Source of the DNA: a bacterium | GTDB lineage: Bacteria; Patescibacteriota; Minisyncoccia; Phycocordibacterales; JBBTRF01 | NCBI GenBank assembly: GCA_037130265.1 | Contig: JBAXTI010000002.1 | Span: 92,870 to 154,293, forward strand | Length of the DNA: 61,424 bases | Reading direction: 5' to 3' | Part shown: piece by piece, positions 4,094-58,512 of the stretch | Position numbering within the stretch: position 1 is the first letter of the stretch | Layout of the letters: the number at the start of each line of letters is the position of its first letter | Made by a program: the position numbers and the translations under genes | Notes under the pieces: model-generated | Seen by the model: only the letters and a program-made list of their open reading frames with translations | Told to the model about the DNA's origin: nothing | Databases searched by the model: none

Positions 4094-4159
4094 GGGGAAA
4101 TTATAGCATGGGCTCCGCCTGTGATGTGTGGTTATGGAGGCGTCCTCGACTTTTTGATT

Positions 4160-4212
4160 GCCCGCGGATTTTGCATACAAAAGTATGAAGAAAGTATGCA
4201 AAATCCGCGGGC
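4160..4212. repeat. perfect palindromic repeat, copy 1 (CCCGCGGATTTTGCATAC-N15-GTATGCAAAATCCGCGGG)
   Basis: 18-19 bp perfect arms at 4161-4178 and 4194-4211. The loop AAAAGTATGAAGAAA is the reverse complement of the loops in copies 2 and 3. Lies between divergent pfkB-like and fba genes. Confidence 0.9.
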
Positions 4213-4416
4213 ACTGGTTTTTTGTGTCGTCCTCTCTCGGATGTATAATGTACTCTATGATTTTCAAAGAACGCACATCCAATCTGCTCGTCAAAATCCT
4301 ATCTAAGATTACAAAAGAAAATCTCCACGAGCCGATAGATTTCGGTTCTCCGGTAGGGAAAGAGTTCTGGTAAGATCCCCCGTCAGGGTCTATTTTGACG
4401 TGATATAATTGTGCAC

Positions 4417-7270: not shown

Positions 7271-7344
7271 ATAGGCGAGTCTTCTCAGAATACGCATTTG
7301 CCCAGGCATTCTTCTGGGAGAGTATTTGCTTGTGAAAGACAGTG

Positions 7345-7395
7345 CCCGCGGATTTTGCATACCTTCTTCATACTTTTGTATGCAAAATCCGCGGG
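7345..7395. repeat. perfect palindromic repeat, copy 2
   Basis: Arms at 7345-7362 and 7378-7395 are identical to copy 1. Loop is CTTCTTCATACTTTT. Ends 54 nt before the 7450 start. Confidence 0.9.
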
Positions 7396-7449
7396 TATGA
7401 AAATGTGACGACACCCCACCCTCTCTGGCTAATCTGGTATAATTAAACG

Positions 7450-9180: not shown

Positions 9181-10167
9181 ATGGATCTCCAAAAGCACAA
9201 GCAGAATCATAAGACGTCATATCTCGCAGAAAGCTGGGAGCGTTTGGACGTGGAAGAAAAAGAACTTCGTGGCATGATTGAAAAGGATGCCGGCTTCGCT
9301 GAATTGGGCGCCAAAGAACTCGAAACCATCGCTGAGCAGAAGAAGGCTCTCGAGGCACAATTGAAGCAGATCGAAGATGCCGACAAGGAGGAGGAAGAGT
9401 TTCCAAATGAAATCGTCATGGAAGTTCGAGCTGGTGCTGGTGGGGAAGAGGCGGCATTGTTTGCGCAAAAATTGGCTGAAATGTATCAGCGTTTCTGCGA
9501 GACGAGAGGTTGGTCTTTCCATCCGCTCGATGAATCTGAAAGCTCTCTTGGGGGCTTCAAAGAAGCGGCTTTTGAAGTGCGTGGCAAGGATGTATACAAA
9601 CTTCTCCGTTTTGAGACAGGTGTGCATCGTATCCAGCGTGTGCCACCCACTGAAAAGATGGGACGCGTACATACCTCGACTGCCTCCGTCGCAATTCTCC
9701 CAATGCGCAAGAAGGTCAATGTTGATATCAGCCCAGCCGATATTCATATGGAATTCTCCCGAGCCGGCGGCAAGGGTGGCCAGAACGTGAACAAGGTGGA
9801 AACCGCCGTGCGTCTCCTCCACAAGCCATCAGGTATCGATGTGCGTTGTACCAGCGAGCGTAGTCAGGCGAAGAATCGCGAGAAGGCGATGAGTATCTTG
9901 GCAGCCAAGATTGCCCGACTCCGCGAGGAAGAAGCTGCTGCCAAATACTCTGGCAACCGTTCGTCCCAGATCGGCACGGCTAGTCGCTCCGAAAAGATTC
10001 GTACTTACAACATTCTCCAGGACCGCGTCACCGACCATCGTATCAAGCAATCTTGGCACAATATCGAAGGCATCTTCCGTGGCGAAATCGACGACATTAT
10101 TCAGGCCGTCTGCGAGGCGGGAGGCGGTACCGCTCCTGCTGAAGAGGGGGAGACTGATAGCGAATAA
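9181..10167 (+). CDS. prfA: peptide chain release factor 1
   Basis: GGQ motif ([18 protein letters not shown]) and an RF1-type RVPPTE tripeptide region. The track start at 9175 is TTG; the ATG is at 9181. Confidence 0.9.
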
Positions 10168-10279
10168 GAGGGAGGTACAAGCATTTTGACGAACCTCTCG
10201 CAGGCCGACGGGCCGAGCAGGAGGCAAAAACCTAGCAAGGTTTTATGCCGTGTTCGGGAAAATGCTTGTACCTCCCTCT
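10167..10279 (-). repeat. nested-hairpin structured repeat, copy D (inverted orientation)
   Basis: 21-bp perfect basal stem (10167-10187 with 10259-10279). The core matches the family only as its reverse complement (ACGGCATAAAACC-TTGCTA-GGTTTTTGCC TCC..). Confidence 0.85.
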
Positions 10280-10320
10280 CCATTTGCAATAATTTCTCCC
10301 ATCTGCTACACTATTTCCCT

Positions 10321-11085
10321 ATGTCAGATACCACCAAAACCCCAAACACCGGCCTCATTGAGAGCTTGTTTAAAGCAGGTTCTCACTTTGCGTTGTCACG
10401 CGCACGACGACATCCAAGCGCTAAGAACTTCATTTTCGGTGCTAAAAACCGAGTGGAGATTTTCGACCTTGAAAAGACCTCAGAGTCTCTCGAAAAGGCG
10501 AAGGCATTTGTAAAGAACCTCGGCTCAGAGGGTCGACAGATCCTTTTTGTCGGTGGTAAGAGCGAAGCTCGTGTTGCAGTACAGAAAGGTGCTGAATCTA
10601 TCGGTATGCCTTTCGTCGCAGGACGATGGATCGGTGGTACTTTCACCAACTACTCAGAGATCAAGCGCCGAATCGAGAAGATGGAGTCTCAGATCTCAAA
10701 GCGAGAGAATGGTGAGCTCCTCAAGTACACCAAGAAAGAGCGACTCATGATTGACCGAGAGATCGACAACCTCCAGAAGTTCTTCGGCGGACTCGTATTG
10801 ATGAAGGAAATGCCAAAGGCGATTTTCGTAATTGACGCAAAGCGTGAGGAGATTGCAGTGCACGAGGCCAACAAGACCGGCATCCCAGTGATCGCTGTGT
10901 GTAACTCTGATTGCGACCTCAACAAAGTCCAGCACTCTATCCCAGGCAACGACGGTGCACAGGCAAGTATCGCTTTCTTTGTGAACCAGATCGTGGCGGC
11001 ATATCAGGACGGCAAGAAGAATCCAAAGGTTGCCCCAGTAGCGGCAACAACACAGCCTTCAATGGCTACAGCCCCGAAGGCGTAA
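10321..11085 (+). CDS. rpsB: 30S ribosomal protein S2
   Basis: Trimmed to the ATG at 10321 (MSDTTKTPNTGLIESLFKAGSHFALSRARRHP..). The upstream part of the track ORF reads through repeat D. TGcTACACT lies 8 nt upstream. Confidence 0.95.
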   Translation: MSDTTKTPNTGLIESLFKAGSHFALSRARRHPSAKNFIFGAKNRVEIFDLEKTSESLEKAKAFVKNLGSEGRQILFVGGKSEARVAVQKGAESIGMPFVAGRWIGGTFTNYSEIKRRIEKMESQISKRENGELLKYTKKERLMIDREIDNLQKFFGGLVLMKEMPKAIFVIDAKREEIAVHEANKTGIPVIAVCNSDCDLNKVQHSIPGNDGAQASIAFFVNQIVAAYQDGKKNPKVAPVAATTQPSMATAPKA

Positions 11086-12397: not shown

Positions 12398-13135
12398 ATG
12401 TCAGAAAGCCAAAAAACAGCGCCGAAAGGTCACCTGCACCCGATTACTCAGGTGATTCGCGAGATTCAGACTATCTTTGCGGAGATTGGTTTTGATGTGG
12501 CGGTGGGGCCGGAGCTTGAGACGGAGTTCTACAACTTCGACGCTTTGAATGTGCCGAAAAATCATCCAGCGCGTGATATGCAAGACACCTTTTGGCTCAA
12601 ACAAAAGAATGCGAAAGGGGAGAATCTGCTTTTGCGTACGCATGCAACTTCAGTGACTCTGCGCATGCTCGAGCAGCACAAGGACGATCTGGCGAAAGTA
12701 GCGCCGTTGCGACTGATTGCACCCGGCAAGGTATTTCGCAATGAAGCGACTGATGTCACTCACGAAGCGCAATTCTTTCAGCTCGATGGCGTGATGGTGG
12801 ACAAGCAGGTGTCGATGGCGGATCTCAAAAATACTCTGACATATTTCTTCAAGCGTCTGCTTGGTGACGATGTCGAACTCCGTTTCCGTCCGAGTTTCTT
12901 TCCGTTCGTTGAACCTGGCGTGGAGATCGATATTCGTTGGAAAGATAAATGGCTCGAGGTGATGGGAGCAGGCTTGCTGCACCCAAATGTGCTCACTGCC
13001 GCCGGCATCGATCCGCAGCAATGGTCGGGCTTCGCTTTCGGCGGCGGTATCGACCGCCTCGTGATGCTTCGCTATGGCATCGACGACATTCGCTCGCTGT
13101 ACACGGCGGATTTGCGGCTGGTGAATCAGTTTTAA
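12398..13135 (+). CDS. pheS: phenylalanine--tRNA ligase alpha subunit (short, catalytic core only)
   Basis: HPITQVIREI, NFDALNVPKNHPARDMQDTFW and FRPSFFPFVEPG. Only 245 aa, so the usual N-terminal extension is absent. Confidence 0.9.
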   Translation: MSESQKTAPKGHLHPITQVIREIQTIFAEIGFDVAVGPELETEFYNFDALNVPKNHPARDMQDTFWLKQKNAKGENLLLRTHATSVTLRMLEQHKDDLAKVAPLRLIAPGKVFRNEATDVTHEAQFFQLDGVMVDKQVSMADLKNTLTYFFKRLLGDDVELRFRPSFFPFVEPGVEIDIRWKDKWLEVMGAGLLHPNVLTAAGIDPQQWSGFAFGGGIDRLVMLRYGIDDIRSLYTADLRLVNQF

Positions 13136-13147
13136 TTGTTCTCGCAA

Positions 13148-13468
13148 ATGAACATCAAAGTTATCACAGATTCAATTTCTCTCAACGAGCTCAAAGAGCT
13201 TGCAAAAGAATACTACATTACCATGATCAAGGGCGTTGTTGATATTGAAAAAGAAATAGTAGCTTTTGGCGGTGAGTATCACATGGATGCAAACGTAGTT
13301 TTGCTCGAAAAAGGCCATCAGCAGGGAGACATCTGGGGATTTAACGTAGTTTTCGATCTTGATTCCGAGGACTGGATTGAATATACTTCTCTTATCAACA
13401 TCCGGCCGCTGAAAGGAAACCGAAGTATGGAAATCACTGATCGGCAATCCGTGAAAAGATCAAAATGA
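13148..13468 (+). CDS. DUF5674-like small protein, apparently frameshifted near its 3' end
   Basis: MNIKVITDSISLNELKELAKEYYITMIKGVVDIEKEIVAFGGEYHMDA..INIRPLKGNRS resembles DUF5674-type proteins (from memory). The expected C-terminus (AIREKIKMIVNAKIKNNFT) continues in another frame at 13444-13503. Confidence 0.5.
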   Translation: MNIKVITDSISLNELKELAKEYYITMIKGVVDIEKEIVAFGGEYHMDANVVLLEKGHQQGDIWGFNVVFDLDSEDWIEYTSLINIRPLKGNRSMEITDRQSVKRSK

Positions 13469-13499: not shown

Positions 13500-13733
13500 A
13501 TGAACACAGAACGCACAGAACTCTTCTATATGGCGAATTTAGGGAGCGAGGTATCTCGTTATCTGGATGCTATCGCGAAGGCGGATGCGAAGCAGGCGGC
13601 GCTGGCGTGGTGTAGGATTGAGGCAATGGAAAAAAAATGCAGATTCTCCCGCTCAGACTTGGCGCTAAAAATGAGATGCGCACCATACTTGGTTTTATTG
13701 CCCATCCAACGGAGAGTGGATTGTCAATTTTAG
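13500..13733 (+). CDS. hypothetical small protein, probably disrupted at an A8 run
   Basis: The ATG overlaps the alternative-frame stop of the preceding gene (ATGA). After the A8 run at 13630-13637, a second frame stays open to 13798. Confidence 0.4.
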   Translation: MNTERTELFYMANLGSEVSRYLDAIAKADAKQAALAWCRIEAMEKKCRFSRSDLALKMRCAPYLVLLPIQRRVDCQF

Positions 13734-13863: not shown

Positions 13864-13892
13864 TTGACAAAATAGCCACAGTGGTATATAAT
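13864..13892 (+). promoter_or_regulatory. consensus sigma-70-type promoter (TTGACA-17 nt-TATAAT)
   Basis: TTGACA at 13864-13869, a 17-nt spacer, TATAAT at 13887-13892. About 210 nt upstream of the DGR target gene. Confidence 0.7.
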
Positions 13893-14104
13893 AACATCAG
13901 TATCAAAACGTCGGTCTTTGACACGAAATTGCGAAAATTGCGAATTTCGCCACAGCAAAGAGCGGCTTTCAGGCGGGTGTCCGGCAGGACCTCTGCACTG
14001 AGCCTTTCTCCGCTGTGGCGAACCGACTCCGATCAGACTGACACCTTGTACGCTTTGTACGAAACAGTATTGATTCCGGAGACGCTGTAACCGCGCAAAT
14101 ACAC

Positions 14105-14800
14105 ATGAAGACATCGACCAAAGAGCAGCTCAACCAACTGCTGGCTCAGCTGCTAGTTACCGCCGACAACCGCAAAATGAGCCATGACCAGATGCAGATG
14201 GCTATCAAGGACACTGCTGGTCTGGCCGAACGCTTCCACGCGTTCATCGACGGCTACGAGGTGCAAACGACCACTCCATCGAGCATCCCCCTCGCTGCTC
14301 ACAAGGCGCGCGCCATGTCGGAGCTCTTCCGCGATGGCAACGGCGTGAAATACTACTACCGCGACGGTGATCTGGACGACTGGTTCACCGCCAACTCCCC
14401 GGAGTGTCTGGCTGGCACCGCGCGCTTCGTCGAGACACCGAAGGTGATGACGTTCAAGCATATGGCACAGTGGGTCACTGGACTCCAGTCAGAGTCCTTT
14501 GCCGACCTCTCCCGTGCCATCGTCGCTCAAAACCTCTACCTCACTCCCGAACAGTGGAACGATCAGATCGTCGCCACCCAAAAAGGCGAGGATATCCTGC
14601 TCACCAACGGCTACGCCTCCTTCGCTTTTGCGCGGACAGGCAAGAAACTCAAGGACGAGAAAGGTGGGGAATACGACGAAGTAGTCATGTTCGACGCCGA
14701 CCGCAGCGACGACGGCCGGTGGCACGCCTACGTCCACGGGCTCGGCTTCGACGGCGGGTGGGATGCCGACTTCGGGCTCCTGCTTCGCAACTCGCCCTAG
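14105..14800 (+). CDS. DGR variable (target) protein 1, 231 aa
   Basis: The last 36 codons form VR1. Paralogous to the 21734-22474 product from MSELFR.. onward. No obvious signal peptide. Confidence 0.85.
   Translation: MKTSTKEQLNQLLAQLLVTADNRKMSHDQMQMAIKDTAGLAERFHAFIDGYEVQTTTPSSIPLAAHKARAMSELFRDGNGVKYYYRDGDLDDWFTANSPECLAGTARFVETPKVMTFKHMAQWVTGLQSESFADLSRAIVAQNLYLTPEQWNDQIVATQKGEDILLTNGYASFAFARTGKKLKDEKGGEYDEVVMFDADRSDDGRWHAYVHGLGFDGGWDADFGLLLRNSP
14687..14793 (+). repeat. DGR variable repeat VR1
   Basis: Colinear with TR 15070-15176. By hand count, 16 differences all at TR adenines, plus one T-to-G difference at the 5' edge. Confidence 0.9.
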
Positions 14801-14829
14801 GGCCCTTGGACACTTTGTCCCTTCGGCCC
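14800..14829 (+). other. GC-rich nested stem-loop immediately 3' of VR1 (candidate DGR target-recognition hairpin)
   Basis: GGGCC..[GGACA-CTT-TGTCC]..GGCCC. The inner hairpin and its flanks are conserved after VR2 (22480-22505). Confidence 0.6.
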
Positions 14830-14842
14830 CTTCAAATCACTT

Positions 14843-14876
14843 CGCCCAGCATTCCGATGCTGGGCGATTCTTTTTT
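14843..14876 (+). terminator. intrinsic terminator of target gene 1
   Basis: CGCCCAGCAT-TCCG-ATGCTGGGCG followed by ATTCTTTTTT. Nearly identical copy at 22517-22550. Confidence 0.8.
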
Positions 14877-15069
14877 GTATTTTTGAACTTATTTTATATA
14901 ATCAAGCTAAGAATTTGCTGGCATGCTCGGCGAAATCTTAGTGTGGCGAATTCTGCAACATTCAAAAAAAGAAATAGTTGGTGCCTCGCTCTAGCGAGAA
15001 ACAGTCTCGGTATACAATTCAGCCCGAAGAGTATTCGATGGGCAGTGTCACAGATGGGGCGAGGTACAA

Positions 15070-15176
15070 ATGTTCTACGCCAACCGCAACGACGACGGCC
15101 GGTGGAACGCCAACGTCAACAGGCTCGACAACGACAACGAGTGGAATGCCGACAACAGGCTCCTGCTTCGCAACTC
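15070..15176 (+). repeat. DGR template repeat (TR)
   Basis: AAC-rich: ATGTTCTACGCCAACCGCAACGACGACGGCCGGTGGAACGCCAACGTCAACAGGCTCGACAACGACAACGAGTGGAATGCCGACAACAGG... Intergenic; donor-like relative to VR1 and VR2. Confidence 0.9.
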
Positions 15177-15192
15177 TTTCTTTTCTCCCGCT

Positions 15193-15537
15193 TTACCGCG
15201 GGAGTTTTTGTTCTAAGTAATTGATCCAGCCATGAAGCATTTGTCCAGCAGCGATCAATTTCTCATTCAATAGGATAAATTTTTTATCCTCGAATATTTT
15301 CATCTCCCAGCCGACAGATAAAAAGAACTTGATAAAGTCCAGATGTTCTTGAGCAGCTGCTATCCGCAATATTTTTTGTTCACCACGATAGTAAGTGGCT
15401 TGGTAAATGAGCTTTAATGTCTCGGTAAAACAGTCCTCGATCTTTGACGCGATACCGAATCGAACTGGCTTCGGTAGGTGTTCGCTATAAGCGAACCACA
15501 AAGAGTAGGTCTCTTTTAAGTGCTGGAGCACTGGCAA
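15193..15537 (-). CDS. avd: Avd-like accessory variability determinant (four-helix-bundle family), TTG start
   Basis: 114 aa, helical (..YSLWFAYSEHLPKPVRFGIASKIEDCFTETLKLIYQATY..LHGWINYLEQK). Size, position next to TR and RT, and family resemblance support the call. Encoded on the strand opposite TR and RT. Confidence 0.7.
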   Translation of the reverse strand: MPVLQHLKETYSLWFAYSEHLPKPVRFGIASKIEDCFTETLKLIYQATYYRGEQKILRIAAAQEHLDFIKFFLSVGWEMKIFEDKKFILLNEKLIAAGQMLHGWINYLEQKLPR

Positions 15538-15568
15538 AATCGTTCGGGGGGGGGGTAGACTTCTGAGG

Positions 15569-16588
15569 GTGAGAATTCAATTGGTTCATGTCTACGAAGA
15601 TATCATATCTGTCGAAAATCTGCTTCTTGCGTGGCGTGAATTTGTGAGTGGTAAGAAACAAAAGAAGGATGCGCAGGAGTTCTCGCTTCGGCTCATGGAT
15701 AACATCTTCGAGCTTCATGCGGAGTTGGCAGCTAAGACATATACTCACTCCGCTTACAAAGCATTTTCGATTTCCGATCCGAAGCCCCGCAGTATTCACA
15801 AGGCGTTGGTGCGAGACCGGCTTTTGCATCATGCTTTGTATCGAAAATTATACCCATTCTTTGACCGGACTTTTATCAGCGATTCGTATTCATGTCGGCG
15901 CTTCAAGGGTACCCATCGAGCGATCGACCGCTTCAGAGTGTTTGGGCGGAAAGTCTCGCGCAACCATACTCGCACCTGCTGGGTGCTCAAATGCGATATT
16001 CGAAAATTCTTTGCTTCCGTGGACCATGCCATTCTTCTGGATATTCTTAGAAAGTACATTGCGGATAGAGATGCTCTTTGGCTTATCGAGCGGGTGATCT
16101 TTAGTTTTCATAGCACCGCGGGAGGGAGGGGACTGCCTCTCGGCAACCTCACCTCTCAACTTCTGGTGAATGTCTATATGAATGAGTTCGATCAATTCAT
16201 GAAGCACCGACTCAAGACGAGATACTATATTCGTTATGCCGACGACTTTGTAATTTTGTCCGATCAAAAACAAGTTCTTGAGAGTACCTTGTCGGAAATT
16301 GGACATTTTTTGGTACAGCAACTACAACTTTCACTTCATCCCGACAAGGTCTCTATAAAAACACTGGCCTCAGGTGTCGATTTTCTTGGGTGGGTGCACT
16401 TTCCGCACCACAGGGTACTGCGAACCGTGACAAAGCGGCGAATGTTCAAACGGCTTGCCTCGACGGCTTCCATGGAGCCATTGTCAGCCCTTGCAACTGT
16501 TCGTTCCTACCTTGGTTTGCTCAGTCATGGAAACGCTCACTATCTCCGTGAAAAAGTCGCACAATACGAGCGGAATATGCTAAAATGA
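15569..16588 (+). CDS. DGR-type reverse transcriptase (GTG start)
   Basis: 339 aa. DIRKFFASVDH, LPLGNLTSQLLVNVYMNEFD (the IGNLTSQ-type motif diagnostic of DGR RTs) and YIRYADDFVIL (YxDD). Confidence 0.9.
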   Translation: MRIQLVHVYEDIISVENLLLAWREFVSGKKQKKDAQEFSLRLMDNIFELHAELAAKTYTHSAYKAFSISDPKPRSIHKALVRDRLLHHALYRKLYPFFDRTFISDSYSCRRFKGTHRAIDRFRVFGRKVSRNHTRTCWVLKCDIRKFFASVDHAILLDILRKYIADRDALWLIERVIFSFHSTAGGRGLPLGNLTSQLLVNVYMNEFDQFMKHRLKTRYYIRYADDFVILSDQKQVLESTLSEIGHFLVQQLQLSLHPDKVSIKTLASGVDFLGWVHFPHHRVLRTVTKRRMFKRLASTASMEPLSALATVRSYLGLLSHGNAHYLREKVAQYERNMLK

Positions 16589-16625: not shown

Positions 16626-18617
16626 ATGAAAGTCTCCCACAACTGGCTCCAATGCTATTTCGACAAGCCGCTTCCGACGGCTGAGAAGCTCGCTGAGCTT
16701 TTCACATTCGGCGCTTTTGAAGTGGAAGGGATTGAGAAGGTGCTCGGAAACGCAGCTGCCGGCGACGCAGATGTGGCGAAGGTTACCGACACCGTCATCG
16801 ACGTGAAGGTGCTACCCGATCGCGCTCACTATGCGCTTTGTCATCGAGGGGTCGCGAGCGAGATATCCGCACTTGCTGGCATCGCGCGCAAGCCGCTCAC
16901 GAAGCCGCCTTTCCTCGAGGCCTCAGCTAGGAAAGTTGAAGTAAAAAATCTCGAGCCGAAACTCTGCACTCGGTACGTCGCGCGCTATGTCGAAAATGTC
17001 ATCGTCGGCAAAACTCCCGACTGGCCACGGCTCTGGCTCGAAGCGATCGGCCAGCGCTCCATCAACACCGTCGTCGACGCTACGAACACGGTGATGTTCG
17101 ACATGGGCCAGCCACTCCATGCTTTTGATGTCGATAAAGTGCAGGGACCGATCACGATCCGCCTCGCCAAGGTCGGCGAGAAGATGACGACACTCGACAG
17201 CAGTGCTGGAGCAGGGAAGGAGATTGAATTGACTTCAGAGATGCTCGTGATTGCTGATGATGCTGGCGTGTTGGCGGTAGCCGGGGTGAAGGGTGGTTCG
17301 CGTGCGGCCGTGACCAGTGAGACCAAAAATCTCATTCTCGAAGCGGCGTGTTTCGACCCCGTTTCCGTTCGCAAGACCAGCACCAAGATCGGCATTCGCA
17401 ATGAGTCGTCGAAGCGTTTTGAAAACGAGATCACGCCGCACCTTGCACCTGACGCAATGTATTGGCTAACCGCGCTCATTTTGGAGCAATCGCCGAAAGC
17501 TGCGGATGGCAAGATTGCAGCAAAGGCCGGCCCGGTGACCGATATCCACGGCGAGCTCCCGGAAAAAGTTAAAATGGAGGTCTCTGCGAAAGATATTTCT
17601 ACCATGCTTGGTGTGCAGATTTCCGTAAGTACAGTCGTCAACCTGCTCAATCGGCTTGAGCTTGCCGCAACCGCAAAGGGCGACATCATCACCCTCACCA
17701 TTCCTCACGATCGCCTCGACCTGCGTATTCCTGCCGACATTGCCGAAGAAGTCGGCCGTCTTTACGGCTACGACAAGATTCCGTACACAGCGCCGGCAAA
17801 ACACTCACTCGTCTCTTCCAACAAAACCTTTTATTATTGCGAAAAGATCAAGAATGCTCTCATCGCTGCCGGCTTTTCTGAAGTATACAGCTACGCACTC
17901 ACCGCCAAGGGTGATTTCGAGATCACCAAACCACTCGCTGCGGACAAGGGCAAGCTCCGCACCAATCTCGCCGACGGCATGACAAAGTCGCTCGAGATGA
18001 ATGTTCGCAATGCCGACCTGCTCGGTCTCGAGACTGTCGCACTTTTTGAAGTCGGCACGGTGTTTAGTGTCGCTGCCGAAACCACATCACTTTGCCTCGC
18101 TGCACAAATGGTGAAGAAAGTGAAAGGGAAGAAGAGTGAGGATGTCCTTCGTGTGGCCATCGCTGAGTTGGAAAAGACGCTCGGCGTTGCGTTGCAGACA
18201 AAGATTTCTCCAGTGGGTACAGGTGCTCTTGCTGAAGTTGATCTCACGTCACTTATTGCCACTCTCTCCGCACCAACCTCATACGCTGACCTTGGCCTCA
18301 CCCGCGCGATCGATACAAAATACAAGCCTTTCTCTGCGTATCCGTTCATCACTCGCGACATTGCATTGTTTGTTCCTGCTGGTACCGATGAAGCCGCTGT
18401 CCGCGACACCATTGCCGATTCGCTCAACAAGATTGCAGGCGATCTCGTGGTAAAGGGGCCTGATTGTTTCGATCGATTCGAGAAAGAGGGGAAGCTCTCT
18501 CTCGCATACCGCATGATTTTTCAATCGTATGAAAAGACACTTTCCGACGAGGAAGTGAATGCACATATGACTGCGCTTCACGATAGTGTGAAGGCGAATG
18601 GGTGGACGGTGCGATAA
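16626..18617 (+). CDS. pheT: phenylalanine--tRNA ligase beta subunit
   Basis: 663 aa. MKVSHNWLQCYF.. N-terminus, a B3/B4 region and a C-terminal FDRFEKEGKLSLAYRMIFQS. Confidence 0.9.
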   Translation: MKVSHNWLQCYFDKPLPTAEKLAELFTFGAFEVEGIEKVLGNAAAGDADVAKVTDTVIDVKVLPDRAHYALCHRGVASEISALAGIARKPLTKPPFLEASARKVEVKNLEPKLCTRYVARYVENVIVGKTPDWPRLWLEAIGQRSINTVVDATNTVMFDMGQPLHAFDVDKVQGPITIRLAKVGEKMTTLDSSAGAGKEIELTSEMLVIADDAGVLAVAGVKGGSRAAVTSETKNLILEAACFDPVSVRKTSTKIGIRNESSKRFENEITPHLAPDAMYWLTALILEQSPKAADGKIAAKAGPVTDIHGELPEKVKMEVSAKDISTMLGVQISVSTVVNLLNRLELAATAKGDIITLTIPHDRLDLRIPADIAEEVGRLYGYDKIPYTAPAKHSLVSSNKTFYYCEKIKNALIAAGFSEVYSYALTAKGDFEITKPLAADKGKLRTNLADGMTKSLEMNVRNADLLGLETVALFEVGTVFSVAAETTSLCLAAQMVKKVKGKKSEDVLRVAIAELEKTLGVALQTKISPVGTGALAEVDLTSLIATLSAPTSYADLGLTRAIDTKYKPFSAYPFITRDIALFVPAGTDEAAVRDTIADSLNKIAGDLVVKGPDCFDRFEKEGKLSLAYRMIFQSYEKTLSDEEVNAHMTALHDSVKANGWTVR

Positions 18618-18671: not shown

Positions 18672-19121
18672 TCAGCGATTTCTGCCAAGTGCGGCGAGGA
18701 GCTGATCCTCAAATACTCTGCGCAGGATCTTTTCTGTGAGATAACGTCGACCTCGAACTGACCGTTCTGTCTCCCCGATCACTGTTTGGAGCTTGCTGAT
18801 ACCAGGCCTGCTTAGGACGATGAGGTTGTCTGCTTCGAGTTGACCCATCAGTATGGTGAAGGCACTGTTATCCAAAAGTGGACCTGTGTGTGGCTTGATG
18901 CCGAGAGATCTTAAGACCGAAACGGGACCATATCCTAGGGCTCGGATGAGTTGATGCGTTTTTGCAGGAGAGAGCGAGCGCTGTCCGCTCTTGGCCAGAC
19001 TTATGAGTGTGCCAGAGATACCGATCCCTTTGGCTATTTTTGCTTGAGATACACCGGGCTCGCTCAGCTTTTTTTTGAGCCAGGGCTGTATTTTGTGCCA
19101 ATCGTACCAATGTCTTCTCAT
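18672..19121 (-). CDS. helix-turn-helix (XRE-like) DNA-binding protein
   Basis: GVSQAKIAKGIGISGTLISLAKSGQRSLS is HTH-like. 149 aa. Confidence 0.5.
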   Translation of the reverse strand: MRRHWYDWHKIQPWLKKKLSEPGVSQAKIAKGIGISGTLISLAKSGQRSLSPAKTHQLIRALGYGPVSVLRSLGIKPHTGPLLDNSAFTILMGQLEADNLIVLSRPGISKLQTVIGETERSVRGRRYLTEKILRRVFEDQLLAALGRNR

Positions 19122-19200: not shown

Positions 19201-21417
<2,217 letters not shown>

Positions 21418-21535
21418 GAAGAGAATACAAAGGCATTTCTCAGAGCACGGAATAAAACCTTGCTAGGTTTTTTCCTCCTGCTCGACCCCTACGGGTCTGC
21501 GCAGAGGCTCTTCGAAATGCCTTTGTATTCTCTTC
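21418..21535 (+). repeat. nested-hairpin structured repeat, copy E
   Basis: 22-bp perfect basal stem (21418-21439 with 21514-21535). Starts at the first nt after the gyrB stop. Confidence 0.85.
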
Positions 21536-21733
21536 TCGTTACCAATGGTCGCAGCACGCGTGTTCGACTGAATGGTGTTTGACATAATTCACTATTTTGT
21601 GGCAGTATTAAAACAGGAGCTGTGGCGGACCATTCTATGGCGAGCAATGAACACGGCTTAGATAGTATGCAAAACAGTCTGTCGGCCCGATCGGTATCTG
21701 GGTTGGGACGGACGCAATTGAAAGGAAAATGGC

Positions 21734-22474
21734 ATGACGACACCTTATGTTGTCAAAAAATCAGTAGCAAAGCGCAAACCGACGCTCGATGAAGTTCTGA
21801 CCTACATGTCGCGCATCAGCGACCTCGGTCGCCGGTTTACGGAAGGCTCACTTCATCCTACCTCGGTGCTGGATACTCTCCAGTGCATGCAGGAGGGATG
21901 GGGGATAGGATCGGGGATGGAGGAAGTTCCCGCAGAGCAGGTGTCTCGAGGTCGCATTATTCCCCTCTTCGCCCACCAGCCCCGCCCGATGTCGGAGCTT
22001 TTCCGCAACGGCGATGGTGTGGAATACTCCCACCGCGACGGCGATTTCGACCGTTTGTTCACTGCCAACTCCCCGGAGTGTCTGGCTGGCACTGCTCGCT
22101 TGGTCAAAACCCCCAAGGCCATGAAGTTCAAGCAGATGGCCCAGTGGGTGACCGGACTCCAGACGGAGTCCGTCGCCGACCTCGCCCGCGCCATCGTCGC
22201 CCAGAACCTCGACCTCACCCCCGCTCAGTGGGACGATCAGATTGTCGCCACGCAAGCAGGTCAGGACATCCTCCTCACCAACACTTGGGCCAGCTTCGCC
22301 TTCGCGAAGACTGGCAAGAAGCTGAAGGATGAGCAGGGACAGGAATACGACGAAGTGGTCGTGCTCGGTGCCGACCGCAGCGGCGGCGGTCGGTGGCACG
22401 CCGACGTCGACGGGCTCGACTACGGCAGCGAGTGGGATGCCGACAGCAGGCTCCTCCTCCGCAACTCGCCCTAG
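21734..22474 (+). CDS. DGR variable (target) protein 2, 246 aa (remote target)
   Basis: Its C-terminal roughly 165 aa are paralogous to target 1. Carries VR2 and the same downstream hairpin and terminator module. Confidence 0.85.
   Translation: MTTPYVVKKSVAKRKPTLDEVLTYMSRISDLGRRFTEGSLHPTSVLDTLQCMQEGWGIGSGMEEVPAEQVSRGRIIPLFAHQPRPMSELFRNGDGVEYSHRDGDFDRLFTANSPECLAGTARLVKTPKAMKFKQMAQWVTGLQTESVADLARAIVAQNLDLTPAQWDDQIVATQAGQDILLTNTWASFAFAKTGKKLKDEQGQEYDEVVVLGADRSGGGRWHADVDGLDYGSEWDADSRLLLRNSP
22370..22467 (+). repeat. DGR variable repeat VR2
   Basis: Colinear with TR 15079-15176. By hand count, 13 differences at TR adenines and 3 elsewhere (GGC/GGT, CTG/CTC, CTT/CTC). Confidence 0.8.
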
Positions 22475-22516
22475 GGCACTTGGACACTTTGTCCCTTCGG
22501 CCCCCTCAAATCATTT

Positions 22517-22550
22517 CGCCCAGCATTCTGATGCTGGGCGATTCTTTTTT
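22517..22550 (+). terminator. intrinsic terminator of target gene 2
   Basis: CGCCCAGCAT-TCTG-ATGCTGGGCG followed by ATTCTTTTTT. Confidence 0.8.
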
Positions 22551-22587
22551 ACTCAAGACATCAGTCCAATTTGAGTGACGAATACAT

Positions 22588-22715
22588 ACGTAGAAGAAAA
22601 CAACACGTCGTTTCGAAGGGCCTCTGCGCAGACCCGTAGGGGTCGAGCAGGAGGCAAAATTCCAGAAGGAATTTATGCCGTGCCCTGAGAAACGACGTGT
22701 TGTTTTCTTCTACGT
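22588..22715 (-). repeat. nested-hairpin structured repeat, copy F (sense to the minus-strand gene that ends at 22720)
   Basis: 27-bp perfect basal stem (22588-22614 with 22689-22715). The core matches copy E as its reverse complement. Confidence 0.85.
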
Positions 22716-22719
22716 ACCT

Positions 22720-23838
22720 TTAGTTGCTCAAATTAACGTACATCTTCCCCTTAATAATATTGTTCGTCTTGTTGGTTTCCTGCACGCTGCCGATTGGGTC
22801 GACGTTGATGACGAATTCATTCTCCGTCTTCTTCAAAATACTATCGAAGCCGAGGGTAAACTGTGCGCGGTCACCAGGGTTCAAGGCAGGCTGGCTGTTC
22901 GACTGGAAGATGTATCCAGGGAAGGTAGGAAGCACAGCGGCGAAGGTCCAATCCTTTGCGGCCTTGGTGCCGAGGTTTACGATCTCAAAACGGATCGCAG
23001 CTCGCTGGTCGGGCTTCACTTCCTTTGCTGGTACGAAAGCAAGAGTCTCTTTGTTGATGTAACCGGTTTCCAAAATGTTGGCGGTCAAGTCGATGCTGCC
23101 ATTCGGGTTGCTCGTGCCCGCAGTCGAGATGCCGGTGCCTGGGATCTGCACAATCTGCGTGTTCTGGAAGCTGCCGTTGATGCCTGTGTTGCTACCAGTG
23201 TTTGAGGTGTTGGTGTTTACCGTATTGTTTGCACCAGTAGTACCAGTGTTCGTATTGGCCGCAGTCTTTACCGGAGGCTTCACTGCATCAGCACTGGTCT
23301 CGCCGGTGATAGTGATGGTTGCACTGGATCGAGTCGATGGAGAAGATTCTTCGTTGCGAGTGAAATACAAGCTGACAGGGAGGTTCACGGTCGCGCCCTT
23401 GGTTGAGTAGCCGACGAGGGCAAGAGAGTTGTCGTTGTTGAGGAAATGGAAAACGGTGTTACAGAAAATGATGTCGTTTGAACCACGACCCACGGCTTCG
23501 AGGTGGACGCCTTCGATGCACGGATAGCTGATGGTGTATGAGCCGCCAACAGGGGAGGTGCTTGAAGTGTCGAGCGCCCACTTGAGAGTGAAGGTGTCGC
23601 CAGAGCCGATGGTGTACGCGTCGCTAGAGACGACGAGTTTCTCGGCAGGGATGAAAACAGAAGAAAGCGAAACGGCTGCTGCGGCAACACCGCGAATGAT
23701 AGCAGGTGTTGCTTTCACGAGACCGAAGCTAATGACGGCCAAAATCGCAATGAGACCAACGATCGACAGGCTCTTCATAGAAGACTCGTGGATCTGCTTG
23801 ATTTTTACAATTTTTGGGTGAATTTCCTTGTTTTCCAT
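22720..23838 (-). CDS. membrane-anchored surface protein with C-terminal CARDB-like domain
   Basis: Trimmed to the ATG at 23838 (MENKEIHPKIVKI..). TM segment LSIVGLIAILAVISFGL, a Thr/Asn-rich linker, and a C-terminal IRFEIVNLGTKAAKDW..NPGDRAQFTLGF..DPIGSVQETNKTNN. Confidence 0.65.
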   Translation of the reverse strand: MENKEIHPKIVKIKQIHESSMKSLSIVGLIAILAVISFGLVKATPAIIRGVAAAAVSLSSVFIPAEKLVVSSDAYTIGSGDTFTLKWALDTSSTSPVGGSYTISYPCIEGVHLEAVGRGSNDIIFCNTVFHFLNNDNSLALVGYSTKGATVNLPVSLYFTRNEESSPSTRSSATITITGETSADAVKPPVKTAANTNTGTTGANNTVNTNTSNTGSNTGINGSFQNTQIVQIPGTGISTAGTSNPNGSIDLTANILETGYINKETLAFVPAKEVKPDQRAAIRFEIVNLGTKAAKDWTFAAVLPTFPGYIFQSNSQPALNPGDRAQFTLGFDSILKKTENEFVINVDPIGSVQETNKTNNIIKGKMYVNLSN

Positions 23839-23907
23839 AGTTGGGGCATTATATACCATAGTGTGGTACTTGTCAAGTGTCGGGCAATGCGCTAGAATGG
23901 TCGAACT

Positions 23908-24624
23908 GTGGCAAAGGAGCAGATTTCCGTGGGCAAGCACTATCTCGCGATCAGCGTGGCTATTCTCTTTTTCTTCATGCTCGGCTCTGTTTTGGGCGTT
24001 TTTGGCCTCTTGCCGCACGATATTCAGCAGGCGGTGCAGCCGAACCCGATCTCGATTTCGAGCCTATTTTCATCCTCTACGAGTCCTACCATGAATCTTC
24101 CCTCCGCTGCGGAGGCCGTTCCTGCCACAAAGGCCGAAGAGCCGGCCGTGCAATACGAGCGTGGTGTGGTGAAGGAGACCCCTCTGCATATCTCGATCCC
24201 AAAGATTGGTGTGAGTGTGGCAGTGAAGAATCCTACGAGTACGAACGCAGCTGTGCTGGACGCAGCTCTCATGGAAGGTGCGGTGCGGTATCCGACTTCT
24301 GGCTTGCTTGGCGAGTCGAAGAATGTGTTTCTTTTTGGTCACAGCGCTTATTCACGAGTGATCAAGAACCGCGCATACCACACTTTTGATGGCGTAGAGA
24401 AATTGGTAGAAGGGGATGAGGTGTATGTAGATAGTCTCGACGCGCGCTATGTCTACAAAGTCGTGCGCGTCTCGTTTTTGAAGGATGTCGACGCCTATAT
24501 CGACCTCGAAAGCGACGTGCGTATGCTCACCCTTTCCACTTGTAATGCGGTCGGAGCCAAAGATGATCGCGTCGTGGTGCAGTCTCGATTTATCAAGAAA
24601 ATGCCGATTCCGTTGGCCAACTAG
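23908..24624 (+). CDS. sortase family transpeptidase
   Basis: LFGHSAY (catalytic His region) and MLTLSTC (TLxTC Cys motif), with an N-terminal TM. Alternative start: GTG at 23929, preceded by AAGGAG. Confidence 0.8.
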   Translation: MAKEQISVGKHYLAISVAILFFFMLGSVLGVFGLLPHDIQQAVQPNPISISSLFSSSTSPTMNLPSAAEAVPATKAEEPAVQYERGVVKETPLHISIPKIGVSVAVKNPTSTNAAVLDAALMEGAVRYPTSGLLGESKNVFLFGHSAYSRVIKNRAYHTFDGVEKLVEGDEVYVDSLDARYVYKVVRVSFLKDVDAYIDLESDVRMLTLSTCNAVGAKDDRVVVQSRFIKKMPIPLAN

Positions 24625-24671: not shown

Positions 24672-25988
24672 ATGAAATCAACGGCTACTCATCATATGAA
24701 CACTTTCCACACCCCACGTATTCTCTCTAGCGTTTTTCTTGCGGCATTCATCGCCGTCCTCGCTTTTTCTGTTGCACCCGCAAAAGTGCATGCGATCAGC
24801 TTCGGCGATGTTGGAAACTTTTTTAATCCATCTGGCTTCGGTGTGCCAACCATTCCAAATCCAATCGATATTTTCGTAAACATTCCAATGGATCCAGTGG
24901 TCGAGACCAAGGGTGTCAGCGACCTCGGCTATAACACCGCGCATATTCACGGCTACGTGAACCCAAACGGTTCTCCTGAGACATGGTCATTTTTCGAATG
25001 GGGTCCCACAACCGGCCTCGGCTTTGTCACTGGTACGTTGGCAATTCCTGTTCCGTCTGACACTGATTTCACTCTCACCAATCTCGCACCGAGCACTACC
25101 TACTATTATCGCGTTGTCGGAAAGAATTCTATTTTCACCGAACGTGGTCCGATCAATAGTTTCACCACACTCGCGGCGCCAGTCGCTCCAGTAGTTGTAC
25201 CTCCGATTGTTGTCCCTCCTGGGACCGGTGTACTCGTACTCGGCTCTTGTTCCTCCGCTCCTGCCTCGCCACTCACTGGCAACACTGTCACTTGGTCTAT
25301 GAGTGCAGCTCCAGCAGGTGGCACCGGCACATATACGTATGCTTGGACGGGTACCGACGGTCTCACGAGTACCACCGCAACAGCATCGAAAGTGTATTCT
25401 ACAATCGGCTCAAAGGCCGCTTCGGTGACTGTCACCTCTGGTGCGCAGATTCTCACTATCACTTGTGCTGCGACCACTGTGGCGAACAACCCGAGCCCGA
25501 TCGCTTTGAGTGCGACGATCGCACCGAACCCTTCGGCGACTGGTGTCGGTGGCGCCATTTCTTGGACAGTTACTCCTGCTGGTGGCATCGGCGGATATAC
25601 CTACTCGTGGTCTGGTGGCGATAGTTTGAACGGCACCACACAGACGGTTTCTCATACGTATTACACCCCAGGTACTGTTACTGGTACCGTGATCGTCACT
25701 TCTGGTGCGCAGACTGTCACCGTGAGTGCGACAGCGACTGTCACCAGTGCGCCAGCTCCAGCTAGTGGTGGCGGTGGTGGCGGGGGAGGAGCAAATCCTC
25801 CGACCGTTGTCTTGTCGGACACTCGACAGGTGCAGGCCTCTACTCTCGCATCCGCAGCTTTTGTCTATTTGAATCAGGTTCCCTATACCGGCATTGAGGA
25901 CTACATCGCTTCGATCATCTTTTTGATCGGGCTTCTTGCGGTCTCGTTTGGCGGTTCATGGTATTTCGTGTTTCGGAAGGCGGCTTAA
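24672..25988 (+). CDS. secreted repeat protein with C-terminal sortase-type sorting signal (VPYTG)
   Basis: Signal-like N-terminus, Ig/PKD-like repeats (GTYTYAWTGTDG and GGYTYSWSGGD), and a C-terminal NQVPYTG followed by a hydrophobic segment and RKAA. Confidence 0.7.
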   Translation: MKSTATHHMNTFHTPRILSSVFLAAFIAVLAFSVAPAKVHAISFGDVGNFFNPSGFGVPTIPNPIDIFVNIPMDPVVETKGVSDLGYNTAHIHGYVNPNGSPETWSFFEWGPTTGLGFVTGTLAIPVPSDTDFTLTNLAPSTTYYYRVVGKNSIFTERGPINSFTTLAAPVAPVVVPPIVVPPGTGVLVLGSCSSAPASPLTGNTVTWSMSAAPAGGTGTYTYAWTGTDGLTSTTATASKVYSTIGSKAASVTVTSGAQILTITCAATTVANNPSPIALSATIAPNPSATGVGGAISWTVTPAGGIGGYTYSWSGGDSLNGTTQTVSHTYYTPGTVTGTVIVTSGAQTVTVSATATVTSAPAPASGGGGGGGGANPPTVVLSDTRQVQASTLASAAFVYLNQVPYTGIEDYIASIIFLIGLLAVSFGGSWYFVFRKAA

Positions 25989-44515: not shown

Positions 44516-44535
44516 AGACGTCGCGAGACGAACGC

Positions 44536-44640
44536 AAAAAGAGCTTACCTCTGGAGACACGCCGTAAATCCTTGCTAGGATTTCGGCTCCGCTCGCCACC
44601 GTCGTGGCTGCGCGAGGTCTCCATCGAGCAAGCTCTTTTT
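44536..44640 (+). repeat. nested-hairpin structured repeat, copy B
   Basis: Basal arms AAAAAGAGCTT and AAGCTCTTTTT with an internal loop. The core is nearly identical to copy C. Confidence 0.85.
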
Positions 44641-44694
44641 GTTTTGTGTCGTCTGAAGTGATGTGGGGCGGAGTTTGTTGGCGAAGTTTTTAGA

Positions 44695-44751
44695 GTACCC
44701 GCGGATTTTGCATACTTTCTTCATACTTTGGTATGCAAAATCCGCGGGTAC
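44695..44751. repeat. perfect palindromic repeat, copy 3 (arms extended to 21 bp)
   Basis: GTACCCGCGGATTTTGCATAC-TTTCTTCATACTTTG-GTATGCAAAATCCGCGGGTAC. Ends 117 nt before trmD. Confidence 0.9.
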
Positions 44752-57076: not shown

Positions 57077-58294
57077 ATGAAGAAACAATCAAAAACCAAT
57101 CAAAAGAAGCTCAAAAAGGCCTCAAAAACGCCTAAAAAGGCCCCTAAGAAGGTTGTTTCTAGTAAAGCGGTCAAAGTCACAGCAAAGCCAGCTCCGAAGC
57201 TCCGTGGGGCTAAAAAGGCCGAAGATTTCGAAATCCGTACTCTCCGGCTCATGGCCAAGGGCAAGGATCGTGGCTTCGTGACCTATGATGAGATTTTGAA
57301 GGAGTTTCCTCACATCGAAGACGACATCACTTTCCTTGATGAATTGTATGGCAAGCTCAGTACTTCCGGCATTGATGTGCTCGAAGGTGGTGGCATGCTC
57401 GATATCAAGAACGAAGATTTGATTGTCGAGAAGAAGCATAGCTACGGTGGCAAGTCAGAGTCTTCATACGATTCCATTCAGATGTATTTGAAGGAGATCG
57501 GTCAGTACCCACTCATTCCTGCGACTGAAGAGAAGGAGCTCGCGCGACGCATTGAGAAGGGCGACAACGAAGCGAAGAATCTTCTCGCGCGAGCAAACCT
57601 CCGATTGGTGGTTTCTATTGCGAAGAAGTATGTGGGCCGATCACCAGACCTCACCTTGCTCGACCTCATTCAGGAAGGTAACCTCGGATTGTTTAAGGCC
57701 GTCGACAAGTTTGATTGGACAAAGGGATACAAGTTTTCAACCTATGCTACATGGTGGATTCGCCAGGCGATCACTCGTGCGCTCGCTGACCAGTCTCGAA
57801 CTATTCGTGTGCCGGTGCACATGGTGGAGACCATTGCGAAGTACAAGCAAGTGGTCCGACGACTCTCTCAGGACCTCGGACGTGATCCATTGCCGGAAGA
57901 GATTGCGGTAGAAATGGGACTTGATGTTGAGAAGGTGTATCAGATCGAGAAGATCGATCAGGACACTGTTTCATTGGAAAGCCCAGTTGGCGACGACGGC
58001 GATGAGAAGTCGGTGCTTGGCGACTTTTTGCCAGATGACAAGATTCTCTCGCCTGCCGAGGAATCTTCACGACGTATTTTGTCCGATCAGGTGAAAGAGA
58101 TTTTGAGCGATTTGTCTGAAAAGGAGCGTGAGATTTTGGAAATGCGACACGGCTTGGTGGACGGCATCACTCATACACTTGAGGAAGTGGGGCAGAAGTT
58201 CGGCGTCACTCGCGAGCGTATCCGACAGATTGAAGCAAAGGCTCATGAGAAGATTCGACAGCACGAGAAGATTAATCAGTTGAAGAATTACTAA
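57077..58294 (+). CDS. rpoD: RNA polymerase sigma factor RpoD (Lys-rich N-terminus)
   Basis: Region 2 ([40 protein letters not shown]) and region 4 ([22 protein letters not shown]). Confidence 0.95.
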
Positions 58295-58295
58295 A

Positions 58296-58409
58296 AGAAA
58301 ATACAAAGCTCCCTTCCTGAGACACGCCATAAAACCTTGCTAGGATTTTGGCTCCTCTCGCCACCGTCGTGGCTGCGAGAGGTCTCCGTCAGGGAGCTTT
58401 GTCTTTTTT
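58296..58409 (+). repeat. nested-hairpin structured repeat, copy C
   Basis: Stem ACAAAGCTCCCT/AGGGAGCTTTGT plus A/T extensions. Core is ACGCCATAAAACC-TTGCTA-GGATTTTGGC TCC TCTCGCCACCGTCGTGGCTGCGAGAGG. Starts 1 nt after the rpoD stop. Confidence 0.85.
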
Positions 58410-58512
58410 ACTGTGTTTCCTTCGCCCTGCGCGATGTCTCTGAAAAACGTTTTTGTTTTGCTTGCAGTATTTCTTGCAATTGTCGTCTTTCGAAAATGGT
58501 ATAATGGGAGGG

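Follow-up and report, generated by a model that had tools for sequence, protein, structure and literature searches.

A probable second, non-adjacent target gene of a diversity-generating retroelement in a Patescibacteria genome

The stretch of DNA analysed here, of 61,424 nt (the window; positions 92,870 to 154,293 of contig JBAXTI010000002.1, assembly GCA_037130265.1), belongs to a bacterium of the Patescibacteriota (Minisyncoccia; Phycocordibacterales; JBBTRF01) and carries a diversity-generating retroelement (DGR), in which a reverse transcriptase (RT) and the accessory protein Avd are encoded beside a template repeat (TR) and a first target gene, T1, that ends in a variable repeat (VR1). 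A second gene, T2, which ends in a repeat of the same kind (VR2), lies on the far side of pheT and gyrB and is probably a second target of the same element. The order of the genes is pheS-T1-TR-avd-RT-pheT-(weak helix-turn-helix open reading frame)-gyrB-T2 (Table 1), and the element is a single chromosomal DGR within the window, with 5.1 kb between the stop codon of the RT gene and the start of T2 and 7.2 kb between TR and VR2. Among the intervening genes that had been named in an original prediction made from the sequence alone, pheT and gyrB are recognised by Pfam, while the helix-turn-helix (HTH) gene gives only sub-threshold matches (E = 0.005). The same order of pheS, T1, TR, avd, RT, pheT, gyrB and T2 is found in locus L001, from a Hainich groundwater metagenome-assembled genome.

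Two target genes and one template repeat

In a three-way alignment, TR 15079-15176 pairs without gaps with both VR1 and VR2. TR and VR1 differ at 16 positions, all of them TR adenines (hypergeometric P = 3.2e-11, with 28 adenines in the 98-nt TR), and TR and VR2 also differ at 16 positions, 13 at TR adenines and three elsewhere (P = 2.3e-6). The non-adenine positions of VR2, which include CTCCTCCTC, are thus identical to TR at 67 out of 70, and the exceptions, 15099 C>T (GGC/GGT), 15165 G>C (CTG/CTC) and 15168 T>C (CTT/CTC), are all synonymous third-position changes, exactly as originally counted. TR adenines are mostly placed in AAC codons (11 AAC and one AAT), from which no stop codon is reachable. 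When the adenines of TR were masked, the remaining skeleton matched the window at three sites only, namely TR itself, VR1 (0 mismatches) and VR2 (1 mismatch), and had 0 matches in 100 shuffles; sequence searches of the window, including this one, found no third VR, second TR or third copy of the 3' module described below. Between VR1 and VR2 there are 12 differences at adenine sites and only three at other sites, as would be expected from independent mutagenic events.

Because a duplicated target could inherit an adenine-biased pattern without ever being an acceptor, re-templating of VR2 was tested separately. VR2 is equal to TR at 29 of 32 synonymous non-adenine third positions, compared to about 65% expected from the divergence of the paralogues (binomial P = 1e-3), and the identity between the T1 and T2 loci, 74-81% in the core, jumps to 96% at the TR boundary. 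Among four known TRs, that of the window fits VR2 best, with three non-adenine mismatches versus 4-9, and VR2 also has the window-specific TR base C15108. Together, the match to TR, the jump at the boundary and the best fit to the window TR indicate that VR2 was homogenised with this TR, and thereby re-templated, after the paralogues had diverged. The substitution is the same in VR1 and VR2 at seven of the ten adenine sites mutated in both (permutation P = 0.036; in L001, P = 0.42), a marginal result that was for this reason not used as evidence for shared ancestry of the two repeats.

The T2 protein consists of a helical N-terminal part of about 75 aa, specific for the T2 type, and a conserved core (residues 76-246) that ends in VR2. 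This core shares 74% identity over 171 aa with residues 61-231 of T1, while the N-termini of the two proteins are only 17% identical, in agreement with the C-terminal paralogy and unrelated N-terminus noted originally. At the DNA level the cores are 74-81% identical, with 35% of third positions different, and the distribution of differences among the three codon positions (25/14/48 of 137 each) indicates purifying selection. N-termini are 43-51% identical within the T1 or T2 type and 8-19% identical across types, and so they define orthology. The core of the window T2 is nearer to that of the window T1 (76% identity) than to those of T2 orthologues (67-69%), which, given the type-specific N-termini, suggests that the C-terminal part evolved as a mosaic or in concert. 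No signal peptide or transmembrane segment was predicted in T1 or T2 (maximum 19-residue hydropathy of T2, 0.7).

The two loci also share what follows the VRs. Right after each VR there is an 83-nt module (14794-14876 and 22468-22550) that is 95.2% identical between the targets, identity falling to 24% right after the T-run, and its 25-mer TTGGACACTTTGTCCCTTCGGCCCC occurs in the window only at 14806 and 22480; the near-identical region of about 85 nt in the original prediction is thereby borne out, as are its terminators, which are predicted at both targets. By analogy with phage DGRs, hairpin 1 of this module is a candidate target-recognition hairpin or cruciform, and the geometry of hairpin 2, a predicted intrinsic terminator, is also that of DGR target hairpins. 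The fold of the whole 73-nt module with both hairpins has -30.8 kcal/mol (z = -4.7), and this two-hairpin module is present at both VRs and absent at TR. At the junction, VR1 and VR2 continue from CGCAACTC into GCCCTAGGGC, whereas TR continues from CGCAACTC into TTTCTTTTC, a divergence that, by analogy, is the equivalent of the initiation of mutagenic homing sequence (IMH) versus its TR counterpart IMH*. The AAC within CGCAACTC was unaltered in 10 out of 10 VRs examined, indicating that the mutagenised tract stops upstream of it. Hairpin 1 is nearly invariant in locus L013 and in VR1 of L001, where the proteins are only 55-70% identical, and the terminator stems of different lineages show G-T wobbles and compensatory changes. 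Since the module is conserved without being templated by TR, it is likely to be under functional constraint; either hairpin may be the recognition element.

Taken as a whole, the RT motifs, the adenine-restricted TR-VR pair, the C-terminal VR, Avd and the IMH-like versus IMH*-like junction mark the element as a DGR. For a non-adjacent target, Wu et al. (2018, PMC5758913) required A-to-N differences only, with minor exceptions allowed, and that the gene does not belong to another DGR; in T2 the exceptions are three and synonymous, and no other RT, TR or avd is found near it within the window. The original proposal that one TR and one RT serve two loci is supported by the adenine bias, the C-terminal position of the VR, the diverging junction, the shared module, the best-fitting TR and the layout of L001.

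Table 1. Features of the retroelement, its targets and the adjacent genes in the window.
Feature	Position	Strand	Remarks
pheS	12398-13135
Consensus promoter	13864-13892		perfect TTGACA-17-TATAAT
Target gene 1 (T1)	14105-14800	+	231 aa; VR1 at 14696-14793
Target 1 3' module	14794-14876	+	hairpin 1, spacer, terminator; counterpart of 22468-22550
Conserved non-coding stretch 5' of TR	14911-15069	+	~90% identity in four lineages; presumably 5' part of TR RNA
TR	15070-15176	+	15079-15176 aligns with both VRs, 15070-15078 with VR1 only
Hairpin and U-run after TR	15185-15204	+	CUCCCGC...GCGGGAG UUUUU; probable 3' end of TR RNA
avd (accessory variability determinant)	15193-15537	-	Pfam bAvd PF22296, NCBIfam DivGenRetAVD
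DGR reverse transcriptase	15569-16588	+	339 aa; RVT_1, E = 3.6e-24
pheT	16626-18617	+	Pfam
Weak-HTH open reading frame	18672-19121	-	sub-threshold HTH matches only
gyrB	19240-21417	+	Pfam
Target 2 5' leader	21598-21733	+	last ~60 nt kept in window, L001 and L012
Target gene 2 (T2)	21734-22474	+	246 aa; open reading frame, translation
VR2	22370-22467	+	codons 213-245 of 246; 13 codons recoded at TR adenines
Hairpin 1	22474-22503	+	begins in stop codon; outer GC stem and inner GGACA-CUU-UGUCC
Hairpin 2	22516-22550	+	10-11 bp GC-rich stem, 4-nt loop, T-run; predicted intrinsic terminator

VR2 as a probable acceptor and the alternative explanations

The reading that we consider probable is that T2 is a genuine non-adjacent second target, that one TR RNA and the RT-Avd complex act in trans on VR1 and VR2, and that VR2 has probably been rewritten less recently than VR1. 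On this reading VR2 would still be active. Following the Bordetella phage model, a TR RNA of about 300 nt would be reverse-transcribed by the RT-Avd complex with misincorporation opposite adenines, and the resulting cDNA would replace the homologous stretch of VR1 or VR2. Acceptors would be marked by the departure of the VR from TR right after CGCAACTC, like IMH from IMH*, and by the same GC-rich hairpin-plus-terminator module 3' of each VR. In this way each protein could be recoded at about 17 codons, on its C-terminal beta strands and loop, giving about 1e15 possible peptides.

Several observations weigh against this interpretation. VR2 has three non-adenine differences and VR1 has none; the substitutions at adenines in VR2 are A>G in 11 out of 13; and a C>A change at 22477 trims the outer stem of hairpin 1 from the 5 bp found at VR1 to 4 bp. 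Two of the non-adenine differences (CTC CTC CTC) have not been overwritten by TR since before the split between the window and L001 lineages. Among the relatives, the VR2 of L001 has drifted, T2 is absent at the syntenic site of locus L018, and no second target is found within 8.6 kb downstream of the RT gene in locus L007, from a Candidatus Taylorbacteria. In addition, the window comprises 61 kb of a 165-kb contig, which leaves room for a second TR elsewhere.

The three non-adenine differences deserve a closer look, as the original prediction had taken them as a hint that VR2 is a weaker or decaying acceptor. The changes at 15165 and 15168 make the 3' end of VR2 read CTC CTC CTC, which is also found in the VR2 orthologues of L001 and L012 (another lineage), and the TR and VR1 of L007, L018 and L013 read CTT CTC CTC, resembling the end of VR2; CTC CTC CTC is therefore the ancestral state. 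The derived states of TR (CTC CTG CTT in the window and CTG CTC CTT in L001) were passed to VR1 and not to VR2. Both positions are beyond the last mutated adenine on its 3' side, where transfer cannot be read from adenines, in the zone expected for the IMH, and being old and so placed they say little about decay. Either the copied tract in VR2 ends upstream of CTC CTC CTC, or VR2 would be rewritten much more rarely than VR1. Inside the mutagenised tract only one non-adenine difference remains, C15099>T, and differences of this kind occur in 23% of DGRs, often differing between the targets of one DGR (PMC5758913). Two of the three differences do not show decay; an actual case of decay is seen in the L001 orthologue.

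In L001, VR2 and the TR of that locus disagree at 11 non-adenine positions, several of the changes being non-synonymous, and hairpin 1 of this VR2 is interrupted by an insertion (z = -1.45), so that loss of hairpin 1 coincides with drift from TR; the cores of T1 and T2 are 55% identical in this locus. In L018, with an RT 80% identical to that of the window, the order of pheT, gyrB and the neighbouring genes is the same and there is no T2 at the syntenic site, L007 has no second target within 8.6 kb 3' of the RT gene, and in L012 a T2-type gene is found in a different context. Being intact in the window, decayed in L001 and absent in L018 and L007, the second target is evolutionarily labile, and target number is known to vary among close relatives in DGRs generally (Wu et al. 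2018, PMC5758913). Among known VRs of the T2 type, that of the window T2 is the best preserved. Seven contigs of the Hainich population have the same VR2, a single minor variant affecting an adenine site (GAC>GCC), and VR1 is likewise nearly fixed at consensus level, with one minor variant, both VRs being covered across 6-8 assemblies; these are consensus sequences, which cannot show activity.

With these data at hand, it is conceivable, although in our judgement unlikely, that VR2 is now an inactive relic, a former acceptor or a copy of one that today undergoes ordinary mutation under purifying selection. Non-adenine differences found in VR2 and not in VR1, two of them ancient and never overwritten, the slightly weakened outer stem of hairpin 1 and the absence or loss of T2 in L018 and L007 would all fit such a history, and exactly this fate has befallen the L001 orthologue. 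On the other hand, VR2 matches TR at 29 of 32 synonymous non-adenine sites against about 65% expected, all three differences are synonymous with only one inside the mutagenised tract, the 3' module has kept its 95% identity to that of VR1, and the window-specific TR state at 15108 is present in VR2. Much less probable is that VR2 resembles TR through ordinary gene conversion between the 3' parts of the paralogues, VR1 being the only true acceptor. It would account for the 95% identity of a module that lies outside TR, for the single terminator type found at both targets of each genome (CGCCCAGCAT in the window and CCCCTGGCAC in L001), for the closer similarity of the window T2 core to the window T1 core than to its orthologues and, marginally, for the shared substitutions at co-mutated adenines. 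However, the jump in identity falls at the TR boundary and not at the end of an arbitrary tract, two T2-specific bases between VR and module are unconverted, VR1 and VR2 differ at 12 adenine sites, the window terminator type is also present in L018 and L012 and may be ancestral, and the L001 cores are only 55% identical.

We regard it as very improbable that the template of VR2 is another TR, belonging to a second DGR or standing alone as an orphan beyond the window. The part of the contig outside the window could house one, members of the target family are often found far from any RT, and the VR2 end CTCCTCCTCCGCAAC is nearer to the TR ends of L007 and L018 (CTTCTCCTC) than to that of the window (CTCCTGCTT), but the window TR is the best overall fit to VR2 among the four known TRs and no further TR-like sequence or 3' module is present in the window. 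The RT has more than 8000 relatives, and the 120 closest of them include only one RT from this contig, a weak test, given that with more than 8000 near-equal relatives within the candidate phyla radiation (CPR) an RT search for a second DGR is uninformative. The interpretation of T2 as a second target served in trans by the window TR is the one retained in what follows.

Genomic setting and structured elements around the targets

The cassette, which lies between pheS and pheT, is a CPR-type DGR with B3 architecture, TR-(avd)-RT. DGR-class RTs are recognised by [I/L/V]GxxxSQ in motif 4 and the YxDD catalytic box, and the RT of the window has LGNLTSQ at residue 191 and YADD at residue 223. It has more than 8000 relatives at E < 1e-40, and the top matches that carry a taxon name are all from Patescibacteria. 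Avd is matched by Pfam bAvd PF22296 with 40.1 bits (cut-off 40) and over its full length by NCBIfam DivGenRetAVD with E = 2e-13 and 50.6 bits (below the cut-off of 80), and is 72-84% identical in L001, L007 and L018. After TR come avd, on the reverse strand, and then the RT gene, in accordance with the definition of B3 (PMC5758913), an architecture that Wu et al. (2018, PMC5758913) found in 90% of the DGRs of CPR and in hardly any others. The neighbours of the cassette are chromosomal (rpsB, tsf, tRNAs, pheS, pheT and gyrB), and since neither the VR pattern nor the protein family was matched in IMG/VR, a phage origin was rejected. GC skew is positive on the strand of both targets throughout the window, which places T1 and T2 co-oriented on one replichore.

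Between pheS and T1 there are a DUF5674 gene (13136-13468) and a 77-aa open reading frame (13500-13733), both missing from L001, which has a DUF5069 gene between the RT gene and pheT; within this clade, the interval between pheS and pheT is a site of variable insertions. The ~31 nt that separate the divergent start codons of avd and RT contain a run of 9-11 G (15545-15554 in the window), found also in L001 and L025 and thus kept even in a distant DGR of the same family.

Upstream of TR, about 170 nt (14911-15078) are ~90% identical in four lineages in which the proteins are 58-80% identical. The hairpin that trails TR overlaps the 3' end of avd on the opposite strand. With a conserved 5' stretch and a conserved 3' hairpin and U-run, TR looks like part of a discrete RNA of ~300 nt (about 14908-15210), which would correspond in CPR to the DGR RNA of the phage. 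A few compensatory pairs are seen in this region, where a TATATAAT box is present at 14895-14902. No family was found in Rfam for the TR RNA or for the leaders and flanking repeats described next.

A structured leader of ~75 nt is found 5' of target genes of the family (13946-14025 in the window, 1581-1654 in L001 and 2481-2554 in L012), made up of an outer stem of 11 bp (CGCCACAGC/GCTGTGGCG), inner stems and an apical hairpin that varies; the window copy sits 3' of the promoter of Table 1. The target 2 leaders of the window and L001 retain only its 3' half. An AAGGA ribosome-binding site is present ahead of the T2 ATG. A coding open reading frame upstream of T2, called in L001, was rejected because its frame is not kept in the window, and the region is better read as a conserved leader.

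T2 is bracketed by two inverted copies of a ~120-nt structured repeat (21416-21540, plus strand, and 22584-22712, minus strand), which occurs three more times in the window (10170-10300, minus; 44520-44650, plus; 58285-58415, plus). Its copies lie directly after stop codons and have a conserved core of two hairpins enclosed by an outer stem of 18-24 bp that varies in sequence by copy and is rich in A on the 5' arm and in U on the 3' arm (fold z -5.5 to -12.9). These repeats also flank T2 in L001, where the left copy is flipped, and a simple terminator occupies the T2-less site of L018; the repeat could be an elaborate bidirectional terminator or an element resembling a miniature inverted-repeat transposable element. 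A near-perfect palindrome of 57 nt (GCCCGCGGATTTTGCATAC...GTATGCAAAATCCGCGGGC) is present in three copies (4157-4213, 7341-7397 and 44694-44750) and is probably another terminator-like or repeat element. Downstream of T2 there is a cell-surface cluster with genes for a CARDB-domain protein (22720-24018, minus strand) and a PKD-domain protein (24672-25988, plus strand). In the syntenic loci L001 and L018, where the gene between their counterparts was scanned, it encodes a sortase.

The target family and comparison with known systems

T1 and T2 have eight close relatives among 5.8 billion clustered proteins, and about 130 clusters (at 50% identity) of distant relatives, all of ~230 aa and, where named, all from Patescibacteria. 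The family has the C-terminal motif RxxxxWxxxVxRLxxxxRWxAxxRLLxRN. The member in L025, 33% identical, has the same architecture and a TR of its own, to which all 14 mismatches fall at adenines, which indicates that the family is a dedicated scaffold for DGR targets. Stand-alone members are found among housekeeping genes in L008-L011 (gene 10001-10759) and L026/L027 (6001-6699), with no RT within 6-10 kb, and these could be remote targets, orphans or non-DGR members.

No match was found in Pfam for T1, T2 or 61 relatives, nor in NCBIfam or with PDB sequence profiles for the targets. An AlphaFold2 model built on eight close homologues was discarded (mean predicted local distance difference test, pLDDT, of 41), and a model built on a 30-sequence alignment reached a pLDDT of 84, with the core above 90; in this model, residues 213-245, corresponding to VR2, are predicted to form the last strands and the loop between them. 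Foldseek searches with it gave nothing significant (best E of 0.34 in PDB and 0.06 in BFVD), and the only C-type lectin match had a template modelling (TM) score of 0.24-0.40 with a probability of 0.15. Roux et al. (2021) expected that CPR targets lacking annotation would be divergent C-type-lectin-fold variants, and it is possible that this family is a very divergent variant of that kind. A more tentative and rather doubtful proposal is that it would be a new scaffold for DGR hypervariation outside the C-type lectins, soluble, with a fixed alpha/beta core, about 17 variable residues on the last beta strands and an exchangeable N-terminal helical domain. If this were true, one TR would drive two paralogues with different N-terminal adaptors, that is, one repertoire module for two intracellular partners.

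Similarly to the C-type-lectin variable proteins Mtd, TvpA, AvpA and TaqVP, the VR of these targets is C-terminal, the variable residues stand among invariant W, R and L scaffold residues on beta strands, and the last strand is hydrophobic with arginine (RLLLRN). In contrast to those proteins, no FGE-sulfatase, DUF1566 or PDB sequence match is found, and a confidently modelled core has no Foldseek match at E < 0.3 in PDB. The family is for this reason a good candidate for structural study of how variable residues are displayed outside the canonical C-type lectin fold.

Non-adjacent targets, non-A differences, the TR-(avd)-RT order in CPR and housekeeping genes between DGR parts have all been documented (PMC5758913). 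As in other CPR DGRs of architecture B3, the order is target, TR, avd on the reverse strand and RT, the RT falls in a very large and tightly conserved clade of Patescibacteria, no domain can be recognised in the target, as in the "unknown VR" classes, and housekeeping genes lie between the parts of the element; the difference is the presence of two targets, the second beyond pheT and gyrB, single targets being the rule in CPR (PMC5758913). Remote targets have been described in Treponema denticola and in 45 of the 372 DGRs of Wu et al. (2018, PMC5758913), where, as proposed here, a single TR and RT act on several distant VRs, the 5' boundary and the count of non-A differences can vary from target to target, and target number varies among close relatives. 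Unlike these, the distance in the window is short (5-7 kb) and the targets are paralogues with a common core and unrelated N-terminal domains.

Multi-target DGRs have been known since Treponema and the 2018 survey, and so the picture of DGR biology is not changed by this locus. What is mildly unusual is that a CPR DGR has two targets, that second targets form a natural series among relatives from intact through decayed to absent, and that a confidently modelled target scaffold lacks structural neighbours; as a clean two-target example from CPR, it is accompanied by relatives that show the whole life cycle of a second target. We know of no experimental study of the target-recognition elements of CPR-type DGRs, and two acceptors with a common non-templated 3' module offer a natural comparison for them.

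In the Bordetella phage BPP-1, the IMH and a GC-rich hairpin or cruciform direct homing and suffice to target a foreign gene (Guo et al. 2011, PMC3240598). The window resembles this system in that VR and TR have a common 3' end beyond which they part, the VR is trailed by a GC-rich inverted repeat, the geometry of hairpin 2 is the same (10-bp GC stem, 4-nt loop) and junction-adjacent adenines are never mutated. It departs from the phage in having two hairpins instead of one, with loops (CUU; UCCG or UCUG) outside the phage GRNA consensus, and in the position of hairpin 2, which lies 49 nt from the end of the VR (4-34 in phages) and doubles as terminator. Furthermore, avd is on the opposite strand, and hence there is no avd-TR-RT operon RNA. 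A recent reconstitution study (2026, PMC12875486) found that the orientation and position of the target modulate editing efficiency and proposed different rates for multiple targets.

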